DNA of 63,428 bases from Escherichia coli (GCF_024223415.1 NZ_CP100504.1); one strand, 5' to 3'; positions 1,301-63,361 are shown, counted from the first letter of the stretch. The notes: generated by a model from the letters alone, not told the origin. A program made the numbers and translations.

Positions 1301-1457
1301 CGGTCCAGCGCAGAACCGAAACCACAAAGCCCCTCCCTCATAACTGAAAAGCGGCCCCGCTCCGGCCCAAAGGGCCGGAACAGAGTCGCTTTTAATTATG
1401 AATGTTGTAACTAAACATCATCATCGCTGTCAGTCTTCTCGCTGGAAGTATTAAGTA

Positions 1458-1495
1458 CACGCTCGTAAGCGGCCCTGACGGCCCGCTAACGCGGA
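1458..1495. repeat. ~32-bp direct repeat, left copy, flanking the TA module
   Basis: cacgctcgtaagcggccctgacggcccgcta recurs at 2627-2670 as ctcgctcgtaagcggccctgaaggctcgctta. Confidence 0.7.
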
Positions 1496-1926
1496 GATAC
1501 GCCCCGACTTCGGGTAAACCCTCGTCGGGACCACTCCGACCGCGCACAGAAGCTCTCTCATGGCTGAAAACGGGTATGGTCTGGCAGGGCAAGGGATGGG
1601 TAAGGTGAAATCTATCAATCAGTACCGGCTTACGCCGGGCTTCGGCGGTTTTACTCCGGTATCACATGTAACCACAGCGTGCCGCCTTACATGCCGCTGG
1701 CGCGGCATAAGCATATGTTGGTGGCTGTGTCTGAAAGGTTATATACTCTGCATAAAACCTGACAACACGCAGATTGCCAGGCAAATGAGCATTATGCATC
1801 CGGTTATCGCCTGCCTGTGAAACAATATCACCGGGGCGAATATCGATACTCTGACTCGTTATACCCATGCGTGCGGCATCAAAAAACCTGCAATTGCCCT
1901 TTATTGAATGAAAGGGGGAGTCAATT

Positions 1927-2190
1927 ATGAATAGCACCACACATTACGAAAACGCCAATTTCCTGCGCGAGCTGGCCGAAAGCCTGCCTCGTATTTTTCC
2001 AGAAGGCAGTACAGACAAGTCTGCACTATTGCAACGCCTCGCTAATGAAGAACTGGCACGGGCGGAATACGACGAACAGATCCGAGCGAAAGTTGCCGCT
2101 GCTCGCGCCGATAAGCGGCCGGGAATGAGTTCCGTGCAACTGCGCCAGCAACTACAGGGACGTTATCAGGAACTGCGCAATGAGTTATGA
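1927..2190 (+). CDS. putative antitoxin partnered with ParE/RelE-family toxin
   Basis: 87-aa ORF overlapping the downstream toxin ORF by 11 nt; small, helical-looking protein; classic type II TA arrangement. Confidence 0.55.
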   Translation: MNSTTHYENANFLRELAESLPRIFPEGSTDKSALLQRLANEELARAEYDEQIRAKVAAARADKRPGMSSVQLRQQLQGRYQELRNEL

Positions 2191-2479
2191 AATAGAATGG
2201 CGACCAGGTGCGATTGAGGATATAACGGCGTTGTTTGAATATCTGGCCGAGAATGCATCTCTTTGGGATGCAAGGAACGTGACAGAGCGTCTGATCACTG
2301 CAACCGATCGTCTGGCAGATTACCCCAGGCTGTATGAAACAGATGAACGCTATGGCGAAGGGGTTCGCCGTATTAGCTTACTTGGGCAGCATGTACTTTA
2401 TGAAGTGAATGATAAGGCCCGTCGTGTCAATATCCTGGCGGTTGTAGGCCAGCGTCAGAATCCCCGATTCATTCTTTGA
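2180..2479 (+). CDS. ParE/RelE-family toxin (plasmid stabilisation)
   Basis: 99-aa ORF with a ParE/RelE-like sequence pattern, translationally coupled to the upstream small ORF. Confidence 0.7.
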   Translation: MSYEIEWRPGAIEDITALFEYLAENASLWDARNVTERLITATDRLADYPRLYETDERYGEGVRRISLLGQHVLYEVNDKARRVNILAVVGQRQNPRFIL

Positions 2480-2626
2480 GTGCCCGGCTTGATGCGGGCT
2501 TACCAGGAATCACGGTTTGGGAGCCGCCTGGAGAAATGAAATTTTCCCATGCTAAGAGTATTGAGTTGAACTAGTAGAATTGACAATTCAAAAACTGAGA
2601 ACATGAAGAAACCCTATACGTCTGTC

Positions 2627-2670
2627 ATACTCGCTCGTAAGCGGCCCTGAAGGCTCGCTTACTCGACATC
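2627..2670. repeat. ~32-bp direct repeat, right copy, flanking the TA module
   Basis: Partner of the 1458-1495 repeat; lies just downstream of the ParE/RelE toxin gene. Confidence 0.7.
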
Positions 2671-2836
2671 CGTTAGTTATAACGTCAGAAGAATTATCGA
2701 GCTTTACTCAAGATCTTCTTCGTCAATCTCCAGCCATCCACGATAAGCTGACTCTGTATCTTTCACATCGTTTTGAGTCATATCAGCATTGCGTAGAAAA
2801 TTAAAAGCTGCCGCACAAAATTGATCTTCCAGGTAT

Positions 2837-3112
2837 TTGAAATACTCCAAACCTATATCCAGCCCCAGCTGCTTTGGCGAGAGAATATCAACTGAACTGG
2901 AGTTCGTCAGAAAAATCTGCCGGGCTGAAGGTGAAACTGAGGCTGATGACGATAAATTAGTGGATGAATTTCGTCGATTAGCTGAACACCCTGATGGTTC
3001 TGATCTTATTTATTATCCAAGGGATGACCGTGAGGACAGTCATGAAGGTATCGTAAAAGAAGTGAAGGAATGGCGAGCCAAAAACGGCAAGCCGGGGTTT
3101 AAACAGGGCTGA
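2837..3112 (+). CDS. colicin/pyocin DNase-type immunity protein (Im family), orphan
   Basis: C-terminal two thirds resemble Im2/Im7/Im9 immunity proteins (HPDGSDLIYYP ... EWRAKNGKPGFKQG); N-terminus atypical; no nuclease colicin gene in the window. Confidence 0.6.
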   Translation: MKYSKPISSPSCFGERISTELEFVRKICRAEGETEADDDKLVDEFRRLAEHPDGSDLIYYPRDDREDSHEGIVKEVKEWRAKNGKPGFKQG

Positions 3113-3164
3113 GGATCTTTGCTAAAGGATTAGCTGAAAATATGGATACCAGCTGTTCACTTCC

Positions 3165-3186
3165 AGAGCGGGCTGTTGCCCGCTCT
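3165..3186. terminator. stem-loop between convergent imm and MFS genes
   Basis: Perfect inverted repeat agagcgggc-tgtt-gcccgctct lying between the imm stop (3112) and the MFS stop (3190). Confidence 0.5.
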
Positions 3187-3189
3187 GCG

Positions 3190-4422
3190 TCATGTTGCCG
3201 CCAGCGGGCGACAGATCGCCCGCAGGGCGACGGCGCTGCACAGCGGAAACAGCGCCAGCAGAAGCCAGGGATAAACCGCCTGCGGCGACGGAATGAGCGC
3301 CTGGTCAAGTAAATGACCGAGCAGTAAATTCCCGGCTAACACCGCGCACCCTCCTGCGGTGGCGAGCGCTCCGTAGTGGGCGCCCAGCGTCGACTCCTCG
3401 GCGAACAGCGGGATCAGATCCTTGGCTGCGGGCACTAACAGCATCTGGCCGAGGGTGAGCAGCGTGACAAAACCAGCCGCCGGCATTAACCGCAGCCAAC
3501 TTTCGGCGGGTGGGGCGGCGGCGAATAACGCCACGCTGGCAAAGGAAGCCGACAGCAGCAGAAAGCCCACCGGCAGGATGCGCACGGCGCCCATTCGCCG
3601 GGCGAAGCGGGCGAGAGGGAGCTGGAGGGTGATAATCAACAGCGAGGCCAGCATAAAGAGCGGCGCCAGATCCTGCTCGCGGCCGCCGGAACGTTGGATC
3701 TCCACCGGCAGAGCGAGGTAGAGTTGGTTGTAGCTCAACAGCCATGAGCTGTAGGCGAGAATAAACGCGACAAAGCGCGGCTGGCGCAAAGGCGTCCACC
3801 ATGGGACTCGTCTGCGCGTTGTTGTCGTGTGCCCGTCGGCGGGCAGACCGAAAAAGAGCACCGCCAGCGCCAGAAGAAATATTCCCGCGCCGGCGAGGGC
3901 GATATGTCGAAAGCCGATCCCGCTCAGCACGCCTCCGGCCACCGGGCCGATCACCGCTCCCAGTTCACCGCATACCGCAAACAGCGCAAACCACTCGGCG
4001 CGGCTGCGTTTCCCGTTGGCCTGGCTGTGGGTACCGGCCCGCGCCAGCAGGGCCTCTATCGACGGGGAGAACAGGGCGCCGCCGACGCCGGTCAGGCAGG
4101 CGCCAAGGATAATGGCCCACAGCGACGCCCCGCACGCCAGCAGGAGAAAACCGGCGACGCGAACGACGCAGCCGGCGAGAATGATCGCCTTAGCGCCATA
4201 GCGGTCGGCCAGCGTCCCGCCGAGGATAAACATCCCCTGTTGGGAGAAGGTACGCAGCCCGAGGATCAGGCCGATAAGTCCGCCTGAGAGCAGCATGTCG
4301 TCGCGCAGGAAGAGGGCGAGGAAAGGTACGACCGCGTAAAAGCCAATATTAAAAACGAACTGGCTTCCCAGTAACACCGGAGGCCAGAGGGTTGCCGCAG
4401 GGCGCAGGGAGAAAAGAGGCAT
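3190..4422 (-). CDS. eitD: MFS transporter, EitD-like
   Basis: Multi-pass membrane protein; likely start is the internal Met (MPLFSL) 12 nt after the upstream ATPase stop; last gene of a four-gene operon in eitABCD order. Confidence 0.55.
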   Translation of the reverse strand: MPLFSLRPAATLWPPVLLGSQFVFNIGFYAVVPFLALFLRDDMLLSGGLIGLILGLRTFSQQGMFILGGTLADRYGAKAIILAGCVVRVAGFLLLACGASLWAIILGACLTGVGGALFSPSIEALLARAGTHSQANGKRSRAEWFALFAVCGELGAVIGPVAGGVLSGIGFRHIALAGAGIFLLALAVLFFGLPADGHTTTTRRRVPWWTPLRQPRFVAFILAYSSWLLSYNQLYLALPVEIQRSGGREQDLAPLFMLASLLIITLQLPLARFARRMGAVRILPVGFLLLSASFASVALFAAAPPAESWLRLMPAAGFVTLLTLGQMLLVPAAKDLIPLFAEESTLGAHYGALATAGGCAVLAGNLLLGHLLDQALIPSPQAVYPWLLLALFPLCSAVALRAICRPLAAT

Positions 4423-4433
4423 ATCCGCCCAAC

Positions 4434-5198
4434 CTAAACGATGAAATGAATGTGCTTTTTGCCGTGGTAAGGGGAGATCTCGATTTTGGTTTTCACCCGG
4501 AAAACGTCCCACAGCAGCGCTTCGGACAAAATCTCCTCCGGCGTCCCGCTGGCGAGGATCTGCCCCTGCTGCATCACGATCAGCGAATCGCAGAACATCG
4601 CGGCATGGTTAAGATCGTGAATGGCCACAATGCTGGTTACCGGCAGCTCGCTGATCAACTGCATTAACTGCATCTGATGGTGTATATCCAGATGGTTGGT
4701 CGGCTCATCCAGCAGGATTTCGCTCGGGCTCTGCGCCAGCGCGCGGGCGATATGCACCCGCTGCCGCTCGCCGCCGGAGAGGCTTAACCATCCCTGTTCG
4801 CTTTTCTCCAGCATAGCTACCCGCTGCAGCGCGGCGGCAATCGCTTCGTCATCCTGAGCGCTCCAGTTTGAGAACGGAGAGTGGTGGGGAATGCGTCCCA
4901 GGCGCACGACGTCGCGCACCCGCATATTGGCCTCGGTCATGCCGTGTTGCTCGACGCAAGCCACGCGGCGGGCGAGCTGCTTTTTCGCCATCCGGGCGAT
5001 ATCCTGGCCGTCGAGGGTGACGCGACCTGCATCCGGGCGGCGCAGGCCCGCCAGAACGCGCAGCAGCGAGGATTTGCCGCAGCCGTTGGGCCCCAGCAGT
5101 CCGACCGTTTCGCCGCGCGGCACCCGCAGCGAGACATTATTGACGATGACCTTTTTGCCTGCCTTCCAGGTGATATTTTCAGCGCAAATACTCATCAC
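4434..5198 (-). CDS. eitC: ABC transporter ATP-binding protein (iron-siderophore type), EitC-like
   Basis: 254 aa with Walker A GPNGCGKSS, ABC signature LSGGERQR and Walker B LLDEP. Confidence 0.6.
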   Translation of the reverse strand: MMSICAENITWKAGKKVIVNNVSLRVPRGETVGLLGPNGCGKSSLLRVLAGLRRPDAGRVTLDGQDIARMAKKQLARRVACVEQHGMTEANMRVRDVVRLGRIPHHSPFSNWSAQDDEAIAAALQRVAMLEKSEQGWLSLSGGERQRVHIARALAQSPSEILLDEPTNHLDIHHQMQLMQLISELPVTSIVAIHDLNHAAMFCDSLIVMQQGQILASGTPEEILSEALLWDVFRVKTKIEISPYHGKKHIHFIV

Positions 5199-6232
5199 TT
5201 ATTCCTTGAGCGGTAGATAATCACGGCAAAGAAAGGCACCCCAACCAGGGCGGTTACTACCCCAACGGGCAGACTTTGCGGGGCAATCAGCAGGCGCGAC
5301 GCAATGTCCGCCAGTACCATCAATATCGCCCCTGCCAGCGCGCTGGCGATCAGCAACGTTCGGTGCAGCGGGCCAAAGAAGAAACGCATCACGTGCGGCA
5401 CCACCAGGCCAACAAAGCCGATTGAGCCGGCCATGCTGACGATGGTGGCGGTGATCAGCGCCGCAGTGGTGAAGAGGATCAGGCGCACGCGCGGCACAGC
5501 AATCCCCAGCGAGGCGGCGGCATCGTCGCCGAAGGTGAACGCGTCCAGCGCCCGGGCATACCACAGGCAGACCGCCAGACCCGCGAGCACCACCACGATG
5601 ACCAACTGGAATTCGGGCCAGCGGACGCCGCTGAAGCTGCCCAGCAGCCAGAACATCACATCGCGCGCCTGCTGCGCGCTGGCGGTGGTGCTGATGGTAT
5701 AGGCCGTGATGGCGTTAAATAACTGCGAGGCGGCGACGCCCGCAAGAATCGTACGCTCATTGCCGCCGCGCGCGCCGTTAGTCAGCAAGGCGACAAAGGC
5801 GAAGGCGGCGAAGGCCCCGGCAAAGGCGCCTGCCGAGAGGGAAATTGCGCCAGAGCCAAGGCCCAGCACCACGATCGACACCGCGCCGGTGGAGGCCCCG
5901 GCGGAGACGCCGAGGACGTAGGGTTCGGCGAGGGCATTCTTCAGCAAGCTTTGCAGCACGACACCGCAGATAGCGAGGCCGGCGCCGCAGCAGGCGGCGA
6001 CCAGCGCGCGGCTGAGGCGGAAATCCCAGATAACGCTCTCATAGATATGGTTGAGCGGCTCAGCGGTTAAGCCGGTTCTGTTGCTGATAGCATAAAAGAC
6101 ATTCTGCAGCGGGATGGCCAGCTCGCCAACGCTGACGCCCACAGCGATCACCAGCGCCAGCACGATCGCTGCCAGTATACACCAGCCGGTGAGCAGTATG
6201 CTGCGGCACGTCTCAATCGCGCCGACGCTCAT
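5195..6232 (-). CDS. eitB: ABC transporter permease (FecCD family), EitB-like
   Basis: 345-aa polytopic membrane protein; stop and start overlap the flanking operon genes. Confidence 0.6.
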   Translation of the reverse strand: MSVGAIETCRSILLTGWCILAAIVLALVIAVGVSVGELAIPLQNVFYAISNRTGLTAEPLNHIYESVIWDFRLSRALVAACCGAGLAICGVVLQSLLKNALAEPYVLGVSAGASTGAVSIVVLGLGSGAISLSAGAFAGAFAAFAFVALLTNGARGGNERTILAGVAASQLFNAITAYTISTTASAQQARDVMFWLLGSFSGVRWPEFQLVIVVVLAGLAVCLWYARALDAFTFGDDAAASLGIAVPRVRLILFTTAALITATIVSMAGSIGFVGLVVPHVMRFFFGPLHRTLLIASALAGAILMVLADIASRLLIAPQSLPVGVVTALVGVPFFAVIIYRSRNK

Positions 6233-7230
6233 CAGTTCAGCCCCATTTTTCTCAGCTGCTCGCCCACCTGCTCCGCGCCGTAAAGCGTGCGAATGGTCGG
6301 ATTCATCGCCTGACCGTCCATGACCACGATATGGCCTTTTTTCACCGCCTCCAGCTGGCTGACGGCGGGATCGCTTTTGAGGAATTTGATCTTCTCCTCG
6401 GCTTTATCCAGCGCCCAGCGGTTACGATCCAGGCTGGCGACCACGATCACATCCGGGTTGGCGGCAATAATGCTCTCCCAGCTCACCGTGGGCCACTCGG
6501 TTTCGGAGGTAATCGCATTATGTCCGCCCAGCACGCTGGCGATAAATCCGGAGGCGCTGTTTTTGCCGCCGACATAGGCATCGGCCGAAGGTGAGGCGCT
6601 GGAGAACCAGAAGACGAAGGAGAGATCCTTTTTGCTTTTACCAAACTCCTGGCGCAGGTCGGCTTCACGTTTTTTGAAATCGGCAATCAGCGCCTGACCA
6701 CGATCTTCGACGTTGAAAATGCGGGAAAAATCGCTAATTTCCTGATACAGCCAGGTCATATCCCACAGCTTTTGCCGGCTGCCGTACATATCGCCGGTGG
6801 CCTTTTTGGTGGCGCATACCCCCGGTGAGAGGTAGCTGTTCACGCCGACGGTGGCGAGATCTTCACGCCTGGCGACTTTGCTTTCCGGCCCCAGCAGCAG
6901 CGGCAACTGGGCGGGAACGAAATCAGGATTTTGCGCCAGCACCGATTCCAGGCTCGGAATTTCCACCGTCAAGGTTTTAATCTTCGCGTTTTGCTCAGCC
7001 AGCTGCGGTAAAACGCTGTTCGGCCAGAAGGCGCTGGCGACCACCTGCTTTTGCAGCCCGAGCAGCAGCAGAATTTCGACCGTATTTTGCCCCAGCGCGA
7101 CCACGCGCTCCGGCGGCCGGGTGAAGGTCTCCTGATAGCCGCAGTTTTCAATCGTCAGGGGGTAGGTTGTTGCCAGCGCGGAACTGACGGCGGTGAACAT
7201 CAAGCCTAACGCGCAAAGGATCTTCTTCAT
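6232..7230 (-). CDS. eitA: periplasmic substrate-binding protein, EitA-like
   Basis: 332 aa with an N-terminal signal peptide (MKKILCALGLMFTAVSSALA); first gene of the operon. Confidence 0.6.
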   Translation of the reverse strand: MKKILCALGLMFTAVSSALATTYPLTIENCGYQETFTRPPERVVALGQNTVEILLLLGLQKQVVASAFWPNSVLPQLAEQNAKIKTLTVEIPSLESVLAQNPDFVPAQLPLLLGPESKVARREDLATVGVNSYLSPGVCATKKATGDMYGSRQKLWDMTWLYQEISDFSRIFNVEDRGQALIADFKKREADLRQEFGKSKKDLSFVFWFSSASPSADAYVGGKNSASGFIASVLGGHNAITSETEWPTVSWESIIAANPDVIVVASLDRNRWALDKAEEKIKFLKSDPAVSQLEAVKKGHIVVMDGQAMNPTIRTLYGAEQVGEQLRKMGLN

Positions 7231-7283
7231 TAAACGCTATCCTTGTAAACAGGCGAGTGGATGACCAGCAAATGGGAGTAATG

Positions 7284-7304
7284 CAAATGAAACTCATTAT
7301 TATC
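7284..7304 (-). promoter_or_regulatory. Fur-box-like sequence upstream of the eit-like operon
   Basis: Minus strand reads gataataatgagtttcatt about 55 bp upstream of the binding-protein start; partial match to the Fur consensus GATAATGATAATCATTATC. Confidence 0.3.
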
Positions 7305-7382
7305 GCGGGGTTTTATACAATGCCATATTTACAGTGTCAATGTGTTCTTGCCCCCTTATTTCCAGACAGGGGTTGTATCTTA

Positions 7383-7535
7383 AGTTAATGTTACCCGCTG
7401 ACGTCGATATTCTCGCGGAGAGCGATAACCCAACGCACTGTGCGGATGGTTTTCATTGTAATGTTCGATCGCCACTGCAAGATTATGCAATGCCGTTCTT
7501 ACATTCGGTTTCGGCATGAACGCGATGTAGTCTTC
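7383..7535 (-). mobile_element. IS transposase C-terminal remnant (DDE integrase core end)
   Basis: Minus-strand frame reads ...[46 protein letters not shown], typical of the C-terminus of IS3-family-like transposases; no upstream part present. Confidence 0.45.
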
Positions 7536-7587
7536 CTTGGGGTCCGCTTGGAAAACGGAAAATATCCCACGCTAAGACTATTTTCTA

Positions 7588-7790
7588 TACAGTAACAGTT
7601 TGCTGTTTCGCTCTAACTCTCAGAATTGTTTGCCGTGTGGTTCGGAATTCCCTGGCAATAGCACTTATACTTGCCCCAGACTTAATGCGTTCGAGTACCT
7701 TCTGTTTTTGTTCTTCATTTAATACCGGTGGGCGACCAAAACGTTTTCCTGCATCCCGTGCTCTTGCTATCCCTGAATAAGTTCGTTCAA
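7588..7790 (-). pseudogene. serine recombinase (resolvase/invertase) C-terminal remnant
   Basis: Minus-strand frame reads [43 protein letters not shown]... (HTH tail of resolvase/Hin-like proteins); upstream part is in another frame and degenerate. Confidence 0.4.
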
Positions 7791-8031
7791 GTAAAAGATC
7801 TCGTTCAAATTCAGCGACCGCTGAAATCTGGTGTTCTCGGTGTTTCTGTGACTGGTGGCAATATCGCGCTCCGGGCTGGAAAACAACCCATCAAAAACGT
7901 TATTGCCAGACATTGCGAACTCACCAGGTTTGATTATTGGTACTGTTTTTTTATAAGTGCCGTGAAATAATTTCATAATAACGACACTGTATTTATTTTA
8001 TGTAATCATTGCTAATGAAATAACTTGATTA

Positions 8032-13125: not shown

Positions 13126-13363
13126 GTGATGTTCTTTAAAAATCAGGATTTATTTCAGGCTCCGGCAATACGCATTTATGTGTTCTGTCAGTCATCCGGC
13201 TGGCAGGTAATGAGAACGCAGGAACAGAAGGAGGAAAACACCGGAGAACGTCAGACGCAGATATGAAAAAAGCAGGTCAGGGACCTGCTTAATCCACGCC
13301 GTAAGAATTGCGCAACCAATTTTGACGGCATTGTTAACCAATTTGTCATAAGGAGTTTCATTT

Positions 13364-13594
13364 ATGACGGTAAGTATTGTTTCACCTTCCGCAGCGGCTG
13401 TAAAGCCCCGCCGTCATCCCCGTTTCAGACGCGAAGACATCCCCGCGCCGGAAATTGACCCCGTGCTGAAAGCCTTCGGGCGACACATAGCCCGGAGTTT
13501 TCACCGGGGGCGTGGTGTACACATCCCCGCCATGAAAAACACGGCCTTCGGGCAGGTGCTCCGCACACTCGAACTGAAACGCGCTTTTAACTGA
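13364..13594 (+). CDS. small basic hypothetical protein
   Basis: 76-aa ORF with RBS aggag 8 nt upstream; first ORF downstream of repeat copy 1. Confidence 0.4.
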   Translation: MTVSIVSPSAAAVKPRRHPRFRREDIPAPEIDPVLKAFGRHIARSFHRGRGVHIPAMKNTAFGQVLRTLELKRAFN

Positions 13595-20559: not shown

Positions 20560-20739
20560 TGCGGCAACAATCACACGGATTTCCCGTGAACGGTCTGAAT
20601 GAGCGGATTATTTTCAGGGAAAGTGAGTGTGGTCAGCGTGCAGGTATATGGGCTATGATGTGCCCGGCGCTTGAGGCTTTCTGCCTCATGACGTGAAGGT
20701 GGTTTGTTGCCGTGTTGTGTGGCAGAAAGAAGATAGCCC

Positions 20740-20810
20740 CGTAGTAAGTTAATTTTCATTAACCACCACGAGGCATCCCTATGTCTAGTCCACATCAGGA
20801 TAGCCTCTTA
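20740..20810 (-). ncRNA. sok: Sok antisense RNA (approximate)
   Basis: Placed by position antisense to the mok/hok leader, from the known organisation of hok/sok loci; exact ends not determinable by eye. Confidence 0.35.
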
Positions 20811-20993
20811 CCGCGCTTTGCGCAAGGAGAAGAAGGCCATGAAACTACCACGAAGTTCCCTTGTCTGGTGTGTGTTGATCGTGTGTCTCACACTGTTGAT
20901 ATTCACTTATCTGACACGAAAATCGCTGTGCGAGATTCGTTACAGAGACGGACACAGGGAGGTGGCGGCTTTCATGGCTTACGAATCCGGTAA
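20781..20993 (+). CDS. mok: Mok (modulation of killing) overlapping reading frame
   Basis: 70-aa ORF overlapping hok in another frame, as in R1 hok/sok. Confidence 0.55.
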
Positions 20994-24809: not shown

Positions 24810-24910
24810 CAATTAACCACATAAAGGTTATATTAATTATGTGGTTAATGCCACGTTAAAAATTTAGTTTGAATCGCCAATGCAGGGAGTAGCACCTCCC
24901 TGCATTGACT
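24810..24910 (-). ncRNA. finP: FinP antisense RNA (approximate)
   Basis: Two inverted repeats in the traJ leader (ttaaccacat...atgtggttaa; tgcagggag-tagcac-ctccctgca) just upstream of the traJ RBS. Confidence 0.5.
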
Positions 24911-24938
24911 GTCCATAGAATCCTTTGAGGAGGTTCCT

Positions 24939-25590
24939 ATGTGTGCAATGGATCGTAGAGAAAGAGCACTCATTCGTCAATTACATTTCCCTAACGACTT
25001 AAGAGAGAACATTTCATTATTGAAATATCCCGTATGTATACGTTTTGAAGACGGTTCTTTTATAGGAACAAATCACAGCTTCGAGCGATTTATTAAATTA
25101 TCATATTGTTCATGTGATGAATGGTTTGAGCATTTGACTTTAGAATCCAAGTTACAACTATCAAGATCTGAGATGGATTCATATTTTTCAACTTATGGTG
25201 TAAGTTATATTAATAATGTTTCAATTAGTGCTATGTCATGGAGCATGGTTATCGAAACACTCAATACAAATGAAGGTTGTTTTTTCGTCTGGCGATTTAT
25301 TGAGTCAAATGACAAAAATATTTCAACATCTTTGATTTCTAAATCTAATGATGGGTTGATATTTTTTCTGGGGAATATATAGATATTGAACCCTATCTTG
25401 TAGGGTTTAGCCATTATTATTCTGCAGCAGTGACAAAAATTAGTATATCTAAATCCAAGAAGAAAACGATGAATTTTTTCAAAATGAATGGGTTTAGTTC
25501 CAGAGATCACTGGTTGGATGAAATGCTCAGGTCTGAAAAAATACTATTTCTATATGATAGAGTAAAAGGAATATTAAAAAACAAGTGTTA
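24939..25590 (+). pseudogene. traJ: transfer activator TraJ, apparent frameshift
   Basis: 147-aa ORF stops at 25382, but the +2 frame is open from 25350 to 25590; the frame change coincides with a T6 run (25363-25368); combined length ~215 aa. Confidence 0.55.
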
Positions 25591-30272: not shown

Positions 30273-30784
30273 AACAGATTTCTTTATTTATTCCTCTGCT
30301 GGGAACCTTATTACTTTCCGGCTGCGCAGGAACAAATACGGAATTTGAGTGTAACGCCACCACATCCGATACCTGTATGACGATGGAGCAGGCCAATGAG
30401 AAGGCCAAAAAACTGGAGCAGTCCTCAGAAGCAAAGCCGGTTGCGGCATCACTGCCGCGCCTGGCTGAAGGGAACTTCCGGACAATGCCGGTGCAGACCA
30501 TCACCGCGACCACTCCGTCCGGCAGCAGACCTGCGGTGACGACACTTCCGGAGCAGAAACTGCTGACACCTCGCCCGCTGTTTACTGCAGCCCGGGAAGT
30601 GAAAACGGTTGTCCCGGTCAGTTCAGTTGCGCCGGTAACGCCTCCCCGTCCGTTAAGAACGGGTGAGCAGACGGCAGCATTATGGATAGCACCATATATT
30701 GATAATCAGGATGTTTATCATCAGCCATCCAGTGTGTTTTTTGTTATTAAACCGTCTGCGTGGGGAAAACCACGTATTAATTAA
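30269..30784 (+). CDS. traV: outer-membrane lipoprotein TraV
   Basis: 171 aa with lipobox LLLSGCAG; matches TraV. Confidence 0.9.
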   Translation: MKQISLFIPLLGTLLLSGCAGTNTEFECNATTSDTCMTMEQANEKAKKLEQSSEAKPVAASLPRLAEGNFRTMPVQTITATTPSGSRPAVTTLPEQKLLTPRPLFTAAREVKTVVPVSSVAPVTPPRPLRTGEQTAALWIAPYIDNQDVYHQPSSVFFVIKPSAWGKPRIN

Positions 30785-31875: not shown

Positions 31876-32238
31876 ATGAAGTCGATATATTTAGAATCTG
31901 TTCTGGCTTTTATATTTGTTGGCGTTATGGCTATGTTGATATGTGGTCTTTTTTACAATGACTACCTTGAGCAACAACCTGCAACACCAGAACAACTGAG
32001 AGAGATTACACAGGATATCCCCTGTGCAGCAGAAGCATTTAAGGAAGCTATTAAGTCTGACACATCTGATTATCAGCCTGAACCTTTAAGTCTTGGTAAG
32101 GCAAAAAAGCTTGCATCAGCGTGTAGAGAAAGAAACGAAATGGCAGAGGTGAAACGGGTAAGAGAAAATGAGCGCAATAAGATTCGCGAAAAACAAATTC
32201 AGGCATTAAATGATGCTCATTCAGTAAAGGAACGTTAA
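31876..32238 (+). CDS. hypothetical membrane-anchored protein
   Basis: ~120 aa from MKSIYLESVLAFIFVGVMAMLICG (RBS aaagga); charged C-terminal region; AT-rich. Confidence 0.45.
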   Translation: MKSIYLESVLAFIFVGVMAMLICGLFYNDYLEQQPATPEQLREITQDIPCAAEAFKEAIKSDTSDYQPEPLSLGKAKKLASACRERNEMAEVKRVRENERNKIREKQIQALNDAHSVKER

Positions 32239-45696: not shown

Positions 45697-48515
45697 ATGA
45701 AGTTTATGTGATTGCCGGTGGTGAGTGGTTGCGGAATAACCTGAATGCCATTGCCGCCTTTATGGGAACCAGAACGTGGGATTCCATTGAAAAAATTGCG
45801 CTCACATTGTCTGTTCTCGCGGTGGCCGTAATGTGGGTACAGCGGCACAACGTGATGGATTTGCTGGGCTGGGTGGCCGTGTTTGTGCTTATCAGCCTGC
45901 TGGTTAATGTCCGTACATCGGTGCAGATTATTGATAACAGTGACCTGGTCAAAGTTCACCGGGTGGATAATGTGCCGGTCGGACTGGCGATGCCACTTTC
46001 ACTGACGACCCGTATCGGGCATGCAATGGTGGCCAGTTACGAGATGATCTTCACGCAACCGGACAGTGTCACCTACAGCAAAACGGGGATGCTGTTTGGC
46101 GCAGAACTGGTATCAAAAAGCACCGACTTTTTGTCCCGTAATCCGGAAATCGCCAATCTTTTCCAGGATTATGTGCAGAACTGCGTGATGGGGGATATTT
46201 ACCTGAACCACAAATATACGCTGGAGGAGCTGATGGCCTCCGCTGATCCCTACACGCTGATTTTTTCCCGCCCCAGCCCGCTGCGGGGCGTTTATGACAG
46301 CAATAATAATTTCGTAACCTGTAAGGACGCTTCGGTTTCGCTGAAAGACAAGCTGAATCTGGACACACAGAGTGGCGGAAAAACCTGGCATTATTATGCC
46401 CAGCAGCTATTTGGCGGACGCCCTGATCCTAACCTGCTGTTCAGTACGCTGATTGGCGACAGTTACAGTTACTTCTATGGCTCAAGTAAATCAGCCAGCC
46501 AGATCATCCGCCAGAATGTCACCATCAATGCGCTGAAGGAGGGGATCACCAGTTATGCCGCACGTAATGGTGATTCGGCCAGCCTGGTGAATCTGGCCAC
46601 CACGTCATCGATGGAGAAACAACGTCTGGCACATGTATCAATCGGTCATGTGGCGATGCGGACACTGCCCATGACGCAGACCATCCTGACGGGGATCGCC
46701 ATCGGTATTTTCCCGCTCCTGGTACTGGCGGCTGTATTCAACAAACTGACGCTGTCCGTCCTGAAAGGCTATGTGTTTGCCCTGATGTGGTTGCAGTCAT
46801 GGCCAATGTTGTACGCCATTCTGAACAGCGCCATGACATTTTATGCAAAGCAGAATGGTGCACCGGTGGTGCTCTCGGAAATTTCACAGATACAGCTGAA
46901 ATACTCCGATCTGGCTTCCACTGCCGGGTATCTTTCCATGATGATCCCGCCATTATCCTGGATGATGGTCAGGGGGCTCGGGGCAGGATTTTCCAGTGTG
47001 TACAGCCATTTCGCTTCCTCTGCTATCAGCCCGACCGCCAGTGCAGCAGGCAGTGTGGTTGACGGTAATTACTCCTACGGCAACATGCAGACGGAGAACG
47101 TGAACGGCTTCAGCTGGAGCACCAACAGCACCACGTCGTTTGGTCAGATGATGTACCAGACCGGCAGTGGCGCAACTGCCACACAGACCCGTGACGGTAA
47201 TATGGTGATGGATGCAAGCGGAGCGATGTCCCGGTTACCGGTCGGCATCAATGCAACGCGTCAGATTGCGGCGGCACAACAGGAAATGGCCCGGGAAGCA
47301 TCGAACAGAGCAGAAAGTGCCCTGCATGGGTTCAGCAGCAGTATTGCCAGTGCCTGGAACACGCTCAGTCAGTTTGGTTCTAACCGGGGGAGCAGTGATT
47401 CTGTCACCGGTGGTGCTGACAGTACGATGAGTGCACAGGACTCCATGATGGCCAGCCGTATGCGCAGTGCAGTGGAAAGCTATGCGAAGGCGCATAATAT
47501 CAGTAATGAGCAGGCGACTCAGGAACTGGCATCCAGAAGTACGAGAGCTTCTGCCGGGATGTATGGAGATGCTCATGCTGAATGGGGGGTTAAACCTGGA
47601 ATTCTTGGTGTTGGTGGCGGCTTAGGTGTTAAAGGTGGTGGTCGCGCTGGTATTGATTGGGAAGATAATGATGCGCATACGGCAAGTAGTAATACTCAGT
47701 CGAGCCATAATGCTCGTCATGATATCGATGCCAGAGCTACACAAGACTTTAAAGAGGCCAGCGATTACTTTACCAGTCGCAAGGTCAGTGAGTCCGGCAG
47801 CCATACTGACAATAATGCTGATTCCCGTGTGGATCAGTTGTCTGCAGCCCTGAATTCAGCGAAGCAGAGTTACGACCAGTTCACGACGAATATGACCCGC
47901 AGCCATGAATATGCTGAAATGGCATCCCGTACTGAAAGCATGAGTGGGCAGATGAGTGAAGACCTGTCGCAACAGTTTGCACAGTATGTGATGAAACACG
48001 CGCCGCAGGATGCCGAAGCTATTCTGACAAACACCAGTTCACCGGAGATTGCAGAACGCCGTCGGGCTATGGCGTGGTCTTTTGTTCAGGAACAGGTGCA
48101 GCCTGGTGTTGATAATGCCTGGCGTGAATCCCGTGGGGACATCGGTAAAGGAATGGAGAGCGTACCTTCGGGTGGTGGCAGCCAGGATATTATTGCTGAT
48201 CATCAGGGGCATCAGGCCATTATTGAGCAAAGAACGCAGGACAGTAATATCCGTAATGATGTAAAACATCAGGTTGATAATATGGTCACAGAATACCGAG
48301 GCAATATCGGAGATACTCAGAGCAGCATACGTGGCGAAGAAAATATTGTAGGAAGACAGTATTCTGAACTACAAAATCACCATAAAACAGAGGCATTATC
48401 TCAGAATAATAAATATAATGAAGAAAAATCGGGTCAGGAAAGAATGCCCGGGGCTGACAGTCCACAGGAACTGATGAAAAGAGCAAAGGAGTATCAGGAT
48501 AAGCACAAGCAATAA
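45693..48515 (+). CDS. traG: TraG (pilus assembly, mating-pair stabilisation, entry-exclusion target)
   Basis: 940 aa with N-terminal polytopic domain and large periplasmic C-terminal domain. Confidence 0.95.
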   Translation: MNEVYVIAGGEWLRNNLNAIAAFMGTRTWDSIEKIALTLSVLAVAVMWVQRHNVMDLLGWVAVFVLISLLVNVRTSVQIIDNSDLVKVHRVDNVPVGLAMPLSLTTRIGHAMVASYEMIFTQPDSVTYSKTGMLFGAELVSKSTDFLSRNPEIANLFQDYVQNCVMGDIYLNHKYTLEELMASADPYTLIFSRPSPLRGVYDSNNNFVTCKDASVSLKDKLNLDTQSGGKTWHYYAQQLFGGRPDPNLLFSTLIGDSYSYFYGSSKSASQIIRQNVTINALKEGITSYAARNGDSASLVNLATTSSMEKQRLAHVSIGHVAMRTLPMTQTILTGIAIGIFPLLVLAAVFNKLTLSVLKGYVFALMWLQSWPMLYAILNSAMTFYAKQNGAPVVLSEISQIQLKYSDLASTAGYLSMMIPPLSWMMVRGLGAGFSSVYSHFASSAISPTASAAGSVVDGNYSYGNMQTENVNGFSWSTNSTTSFGQMMYQTGSGATATQTRDGNMVMDASGAMSRLPVGINATRQIAAAQQEMAREASNRAESALHGFSSSIASAWNTLSQFGSNRGSSDSVTGGADSTMSAQDSMMASRMRSAVESYAKAHNISNEQATQELASRSTRASAGMYGDAHAEWGVKPGILGVGGGLGVKGGGRAGIDWEDNDAHTASSNTQSSHNARHDIDARATQDFKEASDYFTSRKVSESGSHTDNNADSRVDQLSAALNSAKQSYDQFTTNMTRSHEYAEMASRTESMSGQMSEDLSQQFAQYVMKHAPQDAEAILTNTSSPEIAERRRAMAWSFVQEQVQPGVDNAWRESRGDIGKGMESVPSGGGSQDIIADHQGHQAIIEQRTQDSNIRNDVKHQVDNMVTEYRGNIGDTQSSIRGEENIVGRQYSELQNHHKTEALSQNNKYNEEKSGQERMPGADSPQELMKRAKEYQDKHKQ

Positions 48516-52974: not shown

Positions 52975-55900
52975 TGATGAGTATCGCGCAGGTCAGATCG
53001 GCCGGAAGTGCCGGTAACTATTATACCGACAAGGATAATTACTATGTACTGGGCAGCATGGGAGAACGCTGGGCCGGCAGGGGGGCTGAACAGCTGGGAC
53101 TGCAGGGCAGTGTCGATAAGGATGTTTTTACCCGTCTTCTGGAGGGAAGGCTGCCGGACGGAGCGGATCTAAGCCGCATGCAGGATGGCAGTAATAAGCA
53201 TCGTCCCGGCTACGACCTGACCTTCTCCGCCCCCAAAAGTGTCTCCATGATGGCCATGCTCGGGGGGGACAAACGTCTTATTGAAGCACATAACCAGGCC
53301 GTGGACTTTGCTGTTCGTCAGGTGGAGGCGCTGGCCTCCACACGGGTGATGACGGACGGACAGTCAGAAACGGTACTGACCGGTAATCTGGTGATGGCAC
53401 TGTTTAACCACGACACCAGTCGCGATCAGGAACCACAGTTACATACGCATGCGGTGGTGGCTAATGTCACGCAGCATAACGGTGAGTGGAAGACACTGAG
53501 CAGTGACAAAGTGGGGAAAACGGGGTTCATTGAGAATGTGTACGCTAATCAGATTGCCTTTGGCAGGCTCTACCGGGAAAAACTGAAAGAGCAGGTTGAG
53601 GCGCTGGGCTATGAAACCGAAGTGGTGGGTAAGCACGGTATGTGGGAGATGCCGGGCGTACCGGTGGAGGCCTTTTCCGGACGCTCACAGACTATCCGGG
53701 AGGCCGTCGGGGAAGATGCCTCGCTGAAATCCCGGGATGTGGCGGCACTGGATACGCGAAAATCCAAACAGCACGTCGATCCTGAAGTCAGAATGGCTGA
53801 ATGGATGCAGACGCTGAAGGAAACCGGGTTCGACATCCGGGCATATCGTGACGCGGTGGATCAGCGTGCGGAGACCCGCACGCAGGCGCCCGGGGCTGTT
53901 TCACAGGAGGGGCCGGATGTGCAGCAGGCGGTGACACAGGCGATTGCCGGATTAAGTGAACGAAAAATGCAGTTTACGTACACGGACGTGCTGGCCAGAA
54001 CGGTCGGTATACTGCCGCCGGAAAATGGTGTGATTGAACGGGCACGCGCCGGTATCGATGAGGCCATCAGTCGTGAGCAGCTTATCCCCCTCGACCGTGA
54101 GAAGGGGCTGTTCACATCAGGAATTCATGTGCTCGATGAGCTGTCCGTCCGGGCACTCAGTCGTGACATCATGAAACAGAACCGGGTGACCGTACATCTG
54201 GAGAAAAGTGTCCCCCGGACGGCTGGTTACAGCGATGCGGTCAGTGTTCTGGCACAGGACCGTCCGTCGCTGGCCATTGTGTCCGGGCAGGGCGGTGCAG
54301 CCGGGCAGCGTGAGCGGGTGGCTGAACTGGTCATGATGGCCCGGGAGCAGGGGCGGGAGGTGCAGATTATCGCCGCTGACCGTCGCTCGCAGATGAACCT
54401 GAAGCAGGATGAACGGCTGTCCGGTGAGCTGATAACCGGACGTCGTCAGCTGCAGGAGGGCATGGCCTTCACGCCGGGCAGTACTGTTATCGTCGACCAG
54501 GGCGAAAAACTCTCCCTGAAAGAGACGTTAACCCTGCTGGACGGTGCCGCACGTCATAACGTACAGGTCCTGATAACCGACAGCGGGCAGCGAACCGGTA
54601 CAGGCAGTGCACTGATGGCCATGAAGGATGCCGGGGTGAACACGTATCGCTGGCAGGGCGGAGAACAGCGACCGGCCACCATCATCAGTGAACCGGACCG
54701 GAATGTCCGCTATGACCGGCTGGCCGGAGATTTTGCGGCCAGCGTGAAAGCCGGAGAAGAGAGCGTGGCACAGGTCAGCGGGGTACGGGAACAGGCCATA
54801 CTGACACAGGCCATTCGCAGTGAGCTGAAAACACAGGGCGTGCTCGGACACCCGGAGGTGACCATGACGGCACTGTCACCGGTCTGGCTGGACAGCCGGA
54901 GCCGTTATCTGCGGGATATGTACCGACCGGGGATGGTGATGGAGCAGTGGAACCCGGAGACACGCAGTCATGACCGCTATGTTATCGACCGGGTGACGGC
55001 GCAGAGTCACAGCCTGACCCTGCGGGATGCGCAGGGCGAAACGCAGGTGGTGCGTATTTCCTCCCTGGACAGCAGCTGGTCGCTGTTCCGGCCGGAAAAA
55101 ATGCCGGTGGCAGACGGCGAGCGACTGAGGGTGACAGGGAAAATTCCCGGACTCCGCGTCTCCGGCGGTGACCGCCTGCAGGTGGCATCCGTCAGTGAAG
55201 ATGCGATGACGGTTGTTGTGCCGGGGCGGGCTGAACCGGCCACCCTGCCTGTGGCTGATTCACCGTTCACGGCACTGAAGCTGGAGAACGGCTGGGTGGA
55301 AACGCCCGGGCATTCCGTCAGCGACAGTGCGAAGGTTTTTGCCTCCGTCACACAGATGGCAATGGACAACGCCACCCTGAACGGTCTGGCCCGCAGTGGT
55401 CGTGATGTCCGGCTGTATTCTTCACTGGATGAAACCCGTACTGCGGAAAAACTTGCCCGCCATCCCTCCTTTACGGTGGTTTCTGAGCAGATAAAGGCGC
55501 GTGCCGGTGAGACATTGCTGGAAACCGCTATCAGTCTGCAGAAAGCCGGGCTTCACACGCCGGCACAGCAGGCTATTCATCTGGCCCTTCCTGTGCTGGA
55601 AAGTAAAAACCTGGCCTTCAGCATGGTGGACCTGCTGACAGAGGCGAAGTCGTTTGCTGCAGAAGGAACCAGTTTTACTGAACTGGGAGGGGAAATCAAT
55701 GCGCAGATAAAACGCGGTGATTTACTGTATGTGGATGTGGCAAAAGGCTATGGCACAGGCCTGCTGGTTTCCCGTGCGTCGTATGAGGCAGAAAAGAGCA
55801 TTCTTCGCCATATTCTCGAAGGTAAGGAGGCGGTCACGCCGCTGATGGAGAGAGTACCTGGCGAACTCATGGAGAAACTGACATCAGGACAGCGTGCCGC

Positions 55901-59755: not shown

Positions 59756-59968
59756 ATGAATGGATTCAGAAACAGTTCACGGAACGGTCAGGTCTGGCGC
59801 TGGCAGCGTGCCGGAAGCCGGGCCGTTATTCTGGAGGTCAGTGGACGCTGGATGGAAGCGGCAGAAGCATGGCGACGGGCTGCCGGTGTTGCACCCCGGA
59901 CAGACTGGCAGCAGTTTGCCCGAAAAAGGGCTGAACAATGCCACCGACGCTGCCGGGGAAGGGTGTAA
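59756..59968 (+). CDS. small Arg/Trp-rich hypothetical protein
   Basis: 70-aa ORF with strong RBS agaggag 8 nt upstream. Confidence 0.45.
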   Translation: MNGFRNSSRNGQVWRWQRAGSRAVILEVSGRWMEAAEAWRRAAGVAPRTDWQQFARKRAEQCHRRCRGRV

Positions 59969-60212
59969 CGAAAAAGCAGCCTTCATTACTCCAGGGATTC
60001 AGAAGGCTGAATAATGCATGAGATTTGCTTTTTTTAATATCCGGTCGGGCAGTATGACCGGACAGTTCTGAGTAGCACAGAGTTTTTTCCGTATTAAGTC
60101 GTGATTTTATATTTTGTGATTAATTTCGCAAAATAAGGTGTTATTCAGTGTGTGCTGCGATATTCAGGATTACCTGAAATACAGGTGCCATTTATCTGAT
60201 ATGGAGAATAAT

Positions 60213-62250: not shown

Positions 62251-62375
62251 AATAGTCAGCAACAGGGAATGTGGTATTATCGCGGCGGGTGTCTGAGCCT
62301 TTCTGGTTCAGGCAAGACGCAGGTACCAGAAATGCGAAGACCCCACTTGTTAATCCATTAACTCGTGAGGTCTGC

Positions 62376-62582
62376 ATGAAGTACTTGAACACTACTGATT
62401 GTAGCCTCTTCCTTGCAGAGAGGTCAAAGTTTATGACGAAATATGCCCTTATCGGGTTGCTCGCCGTGTGCGCCACGGTGTTGTGTTTTTCACTGATATT
62501 CAGGGAACGGTTATGTGAACTGAATATTCACAGGGGAAATACAGTGGTGCAGGTAACTCTGGCCTACGAAGCACGGAAGTAA
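62376..62582 (+). CDS. srnB: SrnB (Hok/Gef-family membrane toxin locus)
   Basis: 68-aa ORF MKYLNTTDCSLFLAERSKFMTKYALIGLLAVCATVLCFSLIFRERLCELNIHRGNTVVQVTLAYEARK; Hok-like core starts at MTKYAL; a GC-rich fold-back region follows. Confidence 0.8.
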   Translation: MKYLNTTDCSLFLAERSKFMTKYALIGLLAVCATVLCFSLIFRERLCELNIHRGNTVVQVTLAYEARK

Positions 62583-63169: not shown

Positions 63170-63265
63170 CTGATCGTTTAAGGAATTTTGTGGCTGGCCA
63201 CGCCGTAAGGTGGCAGGGAACTGGTTCTGATGTGGATTTACAGGAGCCAGAAAAGTGAAAACCCC
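63170..63265 (-). ncRNA. copA: CopA antisense RNA (approximate)
   Basis: Stem-loop-rich region between repA2 and tap; placed by analogy with R1/R100 copy-number control; ends not determinable by eye. Confidence 0.4.
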
Positions 63266-63361
63266 GATAATCTTCAGCAAGTTTGGCGACTAAGAGAAGA
63301 TTAACGGGGCCATCTAAAAACCGTATAGCCAACAATTCAGCTATGCGGGGAGTATAGTTAT

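Follow-up and report, generated by a model that had tools for sequence, protein, structure and literature searches.

The stretch of Escherichia coli DNA analysed here (63,428 nucleotides (nt) of GCF_024223415.1, NZ_CP100504.1; hereafter the window, with positions counted from its first letter) carries a minus-strand module of about 4.15 kb at 3190-7340, comprising the genes eitABCD and their promoter. With high probability, this locus is the already known eitABCD system, travelling as mobile cargo of a conjugative IncFII plasmid; together with the mechanism proposed below, in which a Fur-controlled ATP-binding cassette (ABC) importer takes up iron, this is the best explanation of the locus. 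The system has been catalogued since 2006, and nothing in the locus, its gene set or its Fur site is new.

Identity and layout of the eitABCD operon

A reading of the window made from its sequence only had proposed that a periplasmic binding protein, a FecCD-type permease, an ABC ATPase and a major facilitator superfamily (MFS) transporter form one minus-strand operon at 3190-7304, in the order and with the sizes of eitABCD. The open reading frames (ORFs) were found at that place, 3190 belonging to the eitD stop codon and 7304 being the outer edge of the Fur-like motif, and the assignment was confirmed by both profile searches and alignments. EitA scored 694 bits against the NCBIfam equivalog NF052484 (cutoff 640) over its full length (1-328 of 328), and EitC scored 518.7 bits against the equivalog NF052485 (cutoff 485). 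EitA is 99.1% identical to RefSeq WP_000756335, with three substitutions, and EitC is 100% identical to WP_000020503. Compared with two reference plasmids, the four proteins reach 98-100% identity, instead of showing the low identity that the sequence-only reading had named as evidence against itself. Recent records of the Prokaryotic Genome Annotation Pipeline (PGAP) label such genes eitA, eitC and eitD.

At the DNA level, the module is 99.2-99.8% identical to reference eit plasmids over the whole 4.15 kb, with the same gene order on one strand. The slightly larger interval 3000-7600 (4.6 kb) shares 99.7% DNA identity with plasmids of avian pathogenic (APEC) and extraintestinal pathogenic (ExPEC) E. 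coli from poultry and humans, and at least 80% of the interval is covered in 220 PLSDB records. A survey of 5,426 complete E. coli genomes found the module in 218 (about 4%); 223 of its 228 places are plasmid-borne, and all copies are at least 99% identical. The eitABCD genes were described on pAPEC-O2-ColV, pAPEC-O1-ColBM, pChi7122-2, pHK01 and pKF3-70 (PMC3251573; PMC2797631). The window copy shares with eitABCD of APEC/ExPEC plasmids the promoter, the Fur-like site, the remnant of an IS3-family insertion sequence (IS) end and the immunity-gene neighbour, the differences being allelic only. In contrast, pKP04CTXM and the pKF3-70-type relatives carry ISEcp1-blaCTX-M between the toxin-antitoxin/exonuclease genes and eitD, an insertion that the window copy lacks.

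Further sequence features of the four proteins are as follows (domain matches are given in Table 1). EitA starts with a Sec-type signal peptide, MKKILCALGLMFTAVSSALA, cleaved before TTYPLT, so that mature EitA would comprise residues 21-332; the motif TxYPL..NCG is the invariant N-terminus of mature EitA, directly 3' of the ALA cleavage motif. The best named NCBIfam matches of EitB are the putative F420-0 permease and then BtuC, every score being under its cutoff. In EitC, the ATPase motifs are intact: Walker A GPNGCGKS, the signature LSGGE, Walker B ILLDEP and the H-loop H193. The start of eitD was placed at the ATG at 4422, as the Pantoea and Cronobacter proteins align from M31 of the long ORF; the newest PGAP record, 'MFS transporter EitD', has 1233 nt and corresponds to 3190-4422. 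Two alternative starts were rejected, namely the GTG at 4377 used in older RefSeq records (395 amino acids, aa) and the GTG at 4512, with which the raw ORF begins. Judging by these alignments, many deposited EitD proteins are probably 15 residues too short.

There are 1-nt overlaps (TGATG) at the eitA/eitB and eitB/eitC junctions, and 11 nt separate the eitC stop from the eitD start, an arrangement that fits a single operon. Terminator-like matches inside it occur at chance level (8 versus 6.3 +/- 2.3). Past the eitD stop lies a perfect 10-bp GC-rich hairpin, CAGAGCGGGC-AACA-GCCCGCTCTG, which the terminator scan omits because a T tract is absent; it may mark the end of the transcript or stabilise it. 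The segment shared with Pantoea ends near 3202, so that the hairpin, lying outside it, belongs to the plasmid-side junction. The region had also been described as GC-richer than the backbone, which is the case: the GC content is 0.612 in the eit module and 0.517 in the rest of the window, and reaches 0.73-0.80 at third codon positions of the module.

The control region and its conservation across genera

A Fur-box-like sequence before the first gene, as predicted by the sequence-only reading, was found just past a candidate sigma-70 promoter. The stretch 7283-7301 within the operator GATAATAATGAGTTTCATTTGC matches the Fur 19-mer consensus GATAATGATAATCATTATC at 14 of 19 positions, which ties for the top score among about 127,000 window positions, and a core palindrome AATGA-N3-TCATT occupies 7286-7298. 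Dinucleotide shuffling of the 110-nt leader gave P = 0.0065 for the Fur 19-mer and a lower value, P = 0.0005, for the core palindrome. The motifs of three other metalloregulators, Zur, MntR and NikR, all score at chance in the eit leader and were rejected as rival operators. A Fur site and a TTGACA box had been predicted for pKF3-70 in 2010 (PMC2797631). Elsewhere in the window, the tra region holds further 14/19 Fur matches and a second exact AATGA-N3-TCATT core (30695-30719, 32209-32221 and 53028-53046), which are probably chance occurrences inside coding sequence.

The promoter scan skips TTGACA-N17-TATAAA because it demands T as the last base of the -10 box; its output contains instead an overlapping promoter, ATGGCA-16-GATAAT, at 7326-7299. 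We retained TTGACA-N17-TATAAA as the candidate promoter, on the basis of its sequence and conservation. Under either choice, the operator overlaps or directly follows the -10 box, the position expected for a repressor.

The operator was compared among E. coli, Pantoea, Cronobacter and six chromosomal loci (two Serratia, Kluyvera, Lelliottia, Kosakonia-like and Raoultella-like). In the leaders of E. coli, Pantoea and Cronobacter, the -35 box, the -10 box and the core AATGAnTTTCATTTGCAT are invariant, with diverged flanks. The operator is kept in nine enterobacterial genera, eight of the nine scoring 13-15 of 19 at the equivalent position, and both promoter hexamers are conserved in seven of the nine. 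The two promoters with diverged -35 and -10 boxes keep the operator, and in them TTTGCAT is changed to TTATCAT, which is nearer the Fur consensus. Leaders of alphaproteobacterial homologues, with Fur scores of 10-11, are at chance. We consider that this cross-genus conservation argues for a Fur site more strongly than the shuffle statistics do.

Beyond the leader, orthologues of 82-89% identity are common on the chromosomes of environmental Enterobacterales; the family as a whole gave 1,680 hits at E <= 1e-20. The chromosomal eitABC(D) loci of Pantoea, Serratia, Raoultella, Kluyvera, Lelliottia and Kosakonia and those of Cronobacter pESA3-type plasmids (EitA 74-89% identical, DNA about 77%) have the A-B-C(-D) order and the operator in common with plasmid eit, as well as, for the most part, the promoter, whereas their insertion sites all differ; six genera hold the module at six different chromosomal sites. 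On the Cronobacter pESA3-type plasmids, the order is eitCBAD, and eitD is transcribed divergently from the same control region. The exact donor of plasmid eit was not found, the best non-plasmid match reaching about 89%. A Serratia rubidaea-like chromosomal locus (comparison locus L017, 7001-9797) has eitABC without eitD, followed by an OsmC gene. Since eitD is missing there, and likewise from the alphaproteobacterial Eit-like loci, EitD is dispensable for keeping the ABC part.

Proposed mechanism and substrate, and apparent kinship with CbtJKL

In the mechanism that we propose, Fe(II)-Fur bound to the operator would repress TTGACA-N17-TATAAA, and iron limitation would switch the operon on, as suggested by the motif match, its position and its conservation in nine genera. 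EitA, with its observed domain and signal peptide, would be exported by the Sec pathway and bind a ligand in the periplasm. An EitB dimer and an EitC dimer would then form a BtuCD/FhuBC-like type II importer of the EitA-bound ligand, consistent with family membership and the intact ATPase motifs. EitD, translationally close-coupled in E. coli, might conceivably play an accessory role, such as chelator export or a second permease route. The ligand would most likely be iron, as a small chelate or a weakly complexed ion and not a classical large siderophore; this choice is favoured because of the Fur control, the lack of linked receptor or biosynthesis genes, the negative outcome of siderophore-style assays and an apparent relationship to CbtJKL. 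We infer a ranking of substrates in which a small iron chelate or ion comes first, followed by a classical siderophore and then by a non-iron metal such as cobalt. 'Iron uptake' by Eit is a putative function taken from annotation.

Several points weigh against this proposal. The site fits the Fur consensus only moderately, and in the Raoultella-like locus the score of the operator is as low as 11/19. The role given to EitD is guesswork. The closest characterised homologue carries cobalt, not iron. The eitABCD carrier pChi7122-2 gave no signal on chrome azurol S (CAS) agar and did not improve growth in tests with dipyridyl, heme or hemoglobin (PMC3251573). The literature searched shows neither iron-regulated expression of, nor iron transport by, Eit. 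One study lists 'eit' as not induced by iron chelation (PMC3784414); the statement is ambiguous, its strains being without eitB. That paper reports that strain S286 lacks eitB and that no eitB is described in pS88, and the authors may have written 'eit' for ets by mistake; the sentence is not suitable as evidence on eit regulation.

It is somewhat unlikely, in our view, that EitABC is a genuine siderophore (or heme/tetrapyrrole) importer with an unlinked TonB-dependent receptor, EitD moving the same chelator. This alternative draws on the NCBIfam product name 'siderophore ABC transporter' given to EitA and EitC, on the combination of Peripla_BP_2 and FecCD, which is the classical siderophore/heme/B12 architecture, and on Fur control, as is usual for systems of this kind; several siderophore loci also include an MFS gene (EntS; ShiF beside iuc). 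However, no experimental basis for the NCBI name was found, no CAS, heme or hemoglobin phenotype is on record, and no TonB-dependent receptor or siderophore-synthesis gene is linked to eit in about ten contexts (plasmid and six chromosomal). Against the curated models of the characterised siderophore, heme and B12 substrate-binding proteins (SBPs) FecB, FepB, BtuF and IsdE, EitA scored 25-38 bits, with cutoffs of 205-325. Solved structures were rejected as a guide to the ligand: the closest, 4mlz and 4n01, are uncharacterised, unliganded SBPs from structural genomics and are uninformative.

E. coli FhuDBC, FepBDGC, FecBCDE and BtuFCD and the heme systems ShuT/HmuT share Pfam families and the overall mechanism with Eit, but they are only distant to EitA and each has a dedicated TonB-dependent receptor, whereas eit has none linked. 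The putative F420-0 transporter (TIGR03868/03869/03873) is the next-best named family for the three Eit ABC components, with 172, 285 and 283 bits, well under the cutoffs of 392, 437 and 372; that family comes from actinobacteria, and its own function is no more than a prediction.

Many alphaproteobacterial homologues came to light when plasmids were searched with tblastn. Those of 56-67% identity (Rhizobium, Sulfitobacter) comprise eitABC only, without an MFS gene and without a riboswitch. In the clade of 40-47% identity, formed by Pararhizobium, Sinorhizobium medicae, S. meliloti, Rhizobium sp. BG6, R. gallicum and Pseudosulfitobacter, a cobalamin riboswitch lies directly upstream in 7 of 7 loci, with 103-120 bits (gathering score 31.5). 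Some loci of this clade adjoin cob, metE or nrdHIEF genes, and one of them (L007) has two more riboswitches, upstream of metE and of nrdHIEF. The cobalamin riboswitch RF00174 was found neither in the window nor in the 12 Eit-clade loci scanned. In the identity matrix, values are 40-47% between the Eit and Cbt clades versus 56-89% within the Eit clade. Aligned residues that differ between the Eit and the Cbt clade include YGSR versus DGVR and FWP versus VWVGP. By both measures, riboswitch and clade membership, Eit is placed outside the CbtJKL clade.

The homologues in S. meliloti 1021, which we take to be the locus tags SMb20056-58, lie on pSymB at 66.7-69.5 kb behind a cobalamin riboswitch (119.6 bits). 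They are 43/55/46% identical to Eit over the full length and share many invariant SBP residues. From their position and the riboswitch, rather than from an annotated record, we infer that the S. meliloti hit would be cbtJ. PMC7689651 (summarising Cheng et al. 2011) and PMC12239276 present cbtJKL as a Co(II) ABC importer under an adenosylcobalamin (AdoCbl) riboswitch. CbtJKL thus identified appears to be the nearest relative of Eit with an experimentally shown substrate, possibly a new point; Eit and Cbt are not mentioned together in the literature searched. One Klebsiella pneumoniae genome paper lists 'cbtJKL' among chromosomal genes, a label that probably reflects name transfer by a pipeline. 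CbtJKL and Eit have the same architecture of Peripla_BP_2, FecCD and ABC ATPase; CbtJKL differs in having a cobalamin riboswitch instead of Fur, no MFS partner, cobalt as the substrate and a clade of its own.

This kinship raises the alternative that EitABC imports a non-iron metal, cobalt or possibly nickel or manganese, free or weakly chelated, the Fur-like site being cross-regulation or not the main control. We consider this quite unlikely. The full-length identity to CbtJKL speaks for it, and no other characterised family comes near; an iron phenotype was not found for an eit plasmid (PMC3251573), and the 'cbtJKL' label in K. pneumoniae suggests that the name was transferred to enterobacterial homologues. 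On the other hand, the Eit and Cbt clades are separate, the riboswitch is present in all seven Cbt-clade loci and in none of the 12 Eit-clade loci or the window, the enterobacterial operator fits Fur and not NikR, and SBP specificity often shifts at about 45% identity. E. coli and its relatives cannot synthesise B12 de novo under aerobic conditions, and their demand for cobalt is small. Corrinoid (B12) transport by Eit, suggested by the cob, metE and nrd neighbours and the riboswitches of the distant homologues, was rejected because these riboswitches are confined to the 40-47% clade, apparently the cobalt-importing CbtJKL.

More tentatively, and with rather little confidence, we hypothesize that Eit is a Fur-controlled sister of CbtJKL. 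A single lineage for free or weakly chelated transition metals would have been rewired between two metal-sensing controls, the B12 riboswitch in alphaproteobacteria and Fur in Enterobacterales, and Eit would not be a siderophore importer. If true, this would explain both the missing receptor and biosynthesis partner and the negative CAS, heme and hemoglobin assays over about 20 years.

Some neighbourhoods of the rhizobial homologues were recorded in passing. On an R. etli IE4803 plasmid (L005, 4319-7831), a SitABCD-type Mn/Fe ABC transporter lies directly upstream of eitABC-like genes, and its ATPase passes the equivalog cutoff (484 versus 393 bits). This adjacency was rejected as a functional clue: it is strain-specific, the sit cluster being missing from the corresponding site of Rhizobium sp. 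NZLR1 (L014). The sit and eit genes also occur together on ColV plasmids. Upstream of the Rhizobium eitABC-like genes, the iron-responsive operator (IRO) box of RirA has no exact match, only a conserved TGA-N9-TCT. The L014 locus further contains, at 1421-4150, a very large HAMP-domain sensor gene with a periodic repeat, which yields 17 spurious TGA-N9-TCA matches spaced 135-276 nt apart.

Plasmid context and biological meaning

The preferred explanation, a known putative iron importer carried as mobile cargo, is also supported by the surroundings of the module. Homology with Pantoea (77% DNA identity) spans 7340, the first base of the -35 box, to about 3202, so the conserved unit is exactly the promoter and the four genes. 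Since the end of the IS3-family element (7341-7346), presumably IS2-like, abuts the -35 box (7335-7340) to the base, the native promoter was kept and everything upstream was lost at capture. The IS3-family remnant carries a transposase C-terminus that matches Pfam rve_3 with 35.9 bits (profile positions 33-67 of 67) and aligns at 82% DNA identity with the 3' end of a transposase gene annotated as IS3-family in comparison locus L001; PGAP calls it 'integrase core domain-containing protein, incomplete'. The terminal sequence appears to resemble the end of IS2. Next to the remnant is a serine recombinase (resolvase) remnant, the full-length gene of which is annotated in L001; homology with L001 stops at window 7828.

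The sequence-only reading had placed IS and recombinase remnants beside the module. This holds upstream, where both remnants lie, and fails downstream, where an orphan colicin/pyocin immunity gene, rather than an IS, adjoins eitD. This gene has neither a colicin nor a lysis gene beside it, and a 'Bacteriocin immunity protein' is annotated beside eitD in many plasmids; in some (locus L023), the immunity gene is cut by IS1. The surrounding mobile-element debris marks the eit unit as acquired cargo.

Could such cargo be a silent or functionless passenger between IS elements, kept by linkage and not by selection? The IS and recombinase debris and the orphan immunity gene at its flanks, its presence in only 4% of complete genomes and the lack of a detected phenotype are in keeping with this. 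Yet the four ORFs are intact and 98-100% conserved over hundreds of plasmids with differing backbones, the promoter, operator, ribosome-binding site and coupled gene junctions are preserved, and many genera retain chromosomal orthologues of 82-89% identity. We therefore regard a mere passenger as very unlikely.

The window is laid out as IncFII repA, a yacAB-like toxin-antitoxin pair, the immunity gene, eitDCBA, mobile-element debris, parM/stbB, the leading region and an F-type tra region, and is probably a nearly complete plasmid starting at repA. The closest plasmids overall are pHK01/pKF3-70-like, of about 70 kb, with an IncFII RepA/CopA backbone. The earlier attribution to a system of ColV-type virulence plasmids is right in that eitABCD is known from them, and eit occurs on both ColV and IncFII pHK01/pKF3-70 plasmids; the plasmid in the window is of the latter type. 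A ColV/ColBM context was rejected for it on the grounds of this backbone, and the ColV-type markers (RepFIB, iuc, iro, sit, cva and others) were not found in the window. The Rfam RNAs detected in the window are AS-pc01, two sok copies, the traJ 5'UTR/FinP, AS-traG, AS-traI, AS-pc02 and CopA.

Table 1. Features of the eitABCD region, its flanks and the comparison loci (L-numbers). Positions refer to the window unless a comparison locus is named.
Feature	Position	Strand	Description
eitA	6232-7230	minus	332 aa, periplasmic substrate-binding protein; Pfam Peripla_BP_2 99.7 bits
eitB	5195-6232	minus	345 aa, FecCD-type (type II ABC importer) permease; Pfam FecCD 289 bits, 2-311 of 311
eitC	4434-5195	minus	253 aa, ABC ATPase, ABC_tran
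eitD	3190-4422	minus	410 aa, MFS transporter; Pfam MFS_1 107.6 bits
Candidate sigma-70 promoter	7312-7340	minus	-35 TTGACA 7340-7335, 17-nt spacer, -10 TATAAA 7317-7312; 11/12 consensus
Fur-box-like operator	7283-7304	read on minus	Just past -10, about 52 nt before the eitA ATG (7230)
Shine-Dalgarno-like AAGGA	7240-7244	minus	9 nt before the eitA ATG; GAAGGATAG kept in most genera
GC-rich hairpin	3164-3187	minus	2 nt past the eitD stop, no T-run
Orphan colicin/pyocin immunity gene	2837-3112	plus	Pfam Colicin_Pyocin 100.6 bits; not part of the transporter
IS3-family right-end remnant	7341-7541	minus	Transposase C-terminus 7380-7541 and terminal sequence; adjoins the -35 box
Serine recombinase (resolvase) remnant	7585-7827	minus	C-terminal 80 aa only; HTH_7 44.2 bits and Resolvase 117-144 of 145
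Rfam regulatory RNAs	13267-13369, 20665-20841, 24839-24945, 46412-46497, 55823-55899, 59865-60048, 62287-62443, 63253-63344		Typical of IncFII/pHK01-type plasmids
Cobalamin riboswitches	L007 8432-8673; L008 8566-8761; L009 3554-3782; L010 3586-3811; L011 3445-3678; L015 3591-3820; L016 16247-16476

Together, our results place this locus within a system that serves as a marker of APEC/ExPEC plasmids and is named automatically by the NCBI pipeline. The eit genes are routinely counted as an iron-acquisition virulence factor, and the remaining value of the locus lies in its function. We advise caution with the product name 'siderophore ABC transporter': with neither a linked outer-membrane receptor nor a published iron phenotype, the siderophore function that it implies is unproven. 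The comparative evidence, namely the cross-genus Fur operator, the receptor-less module and the cobalt-importer relative, leads instead to the hypothesis that Eit may take up a metal ion or a small chelate.

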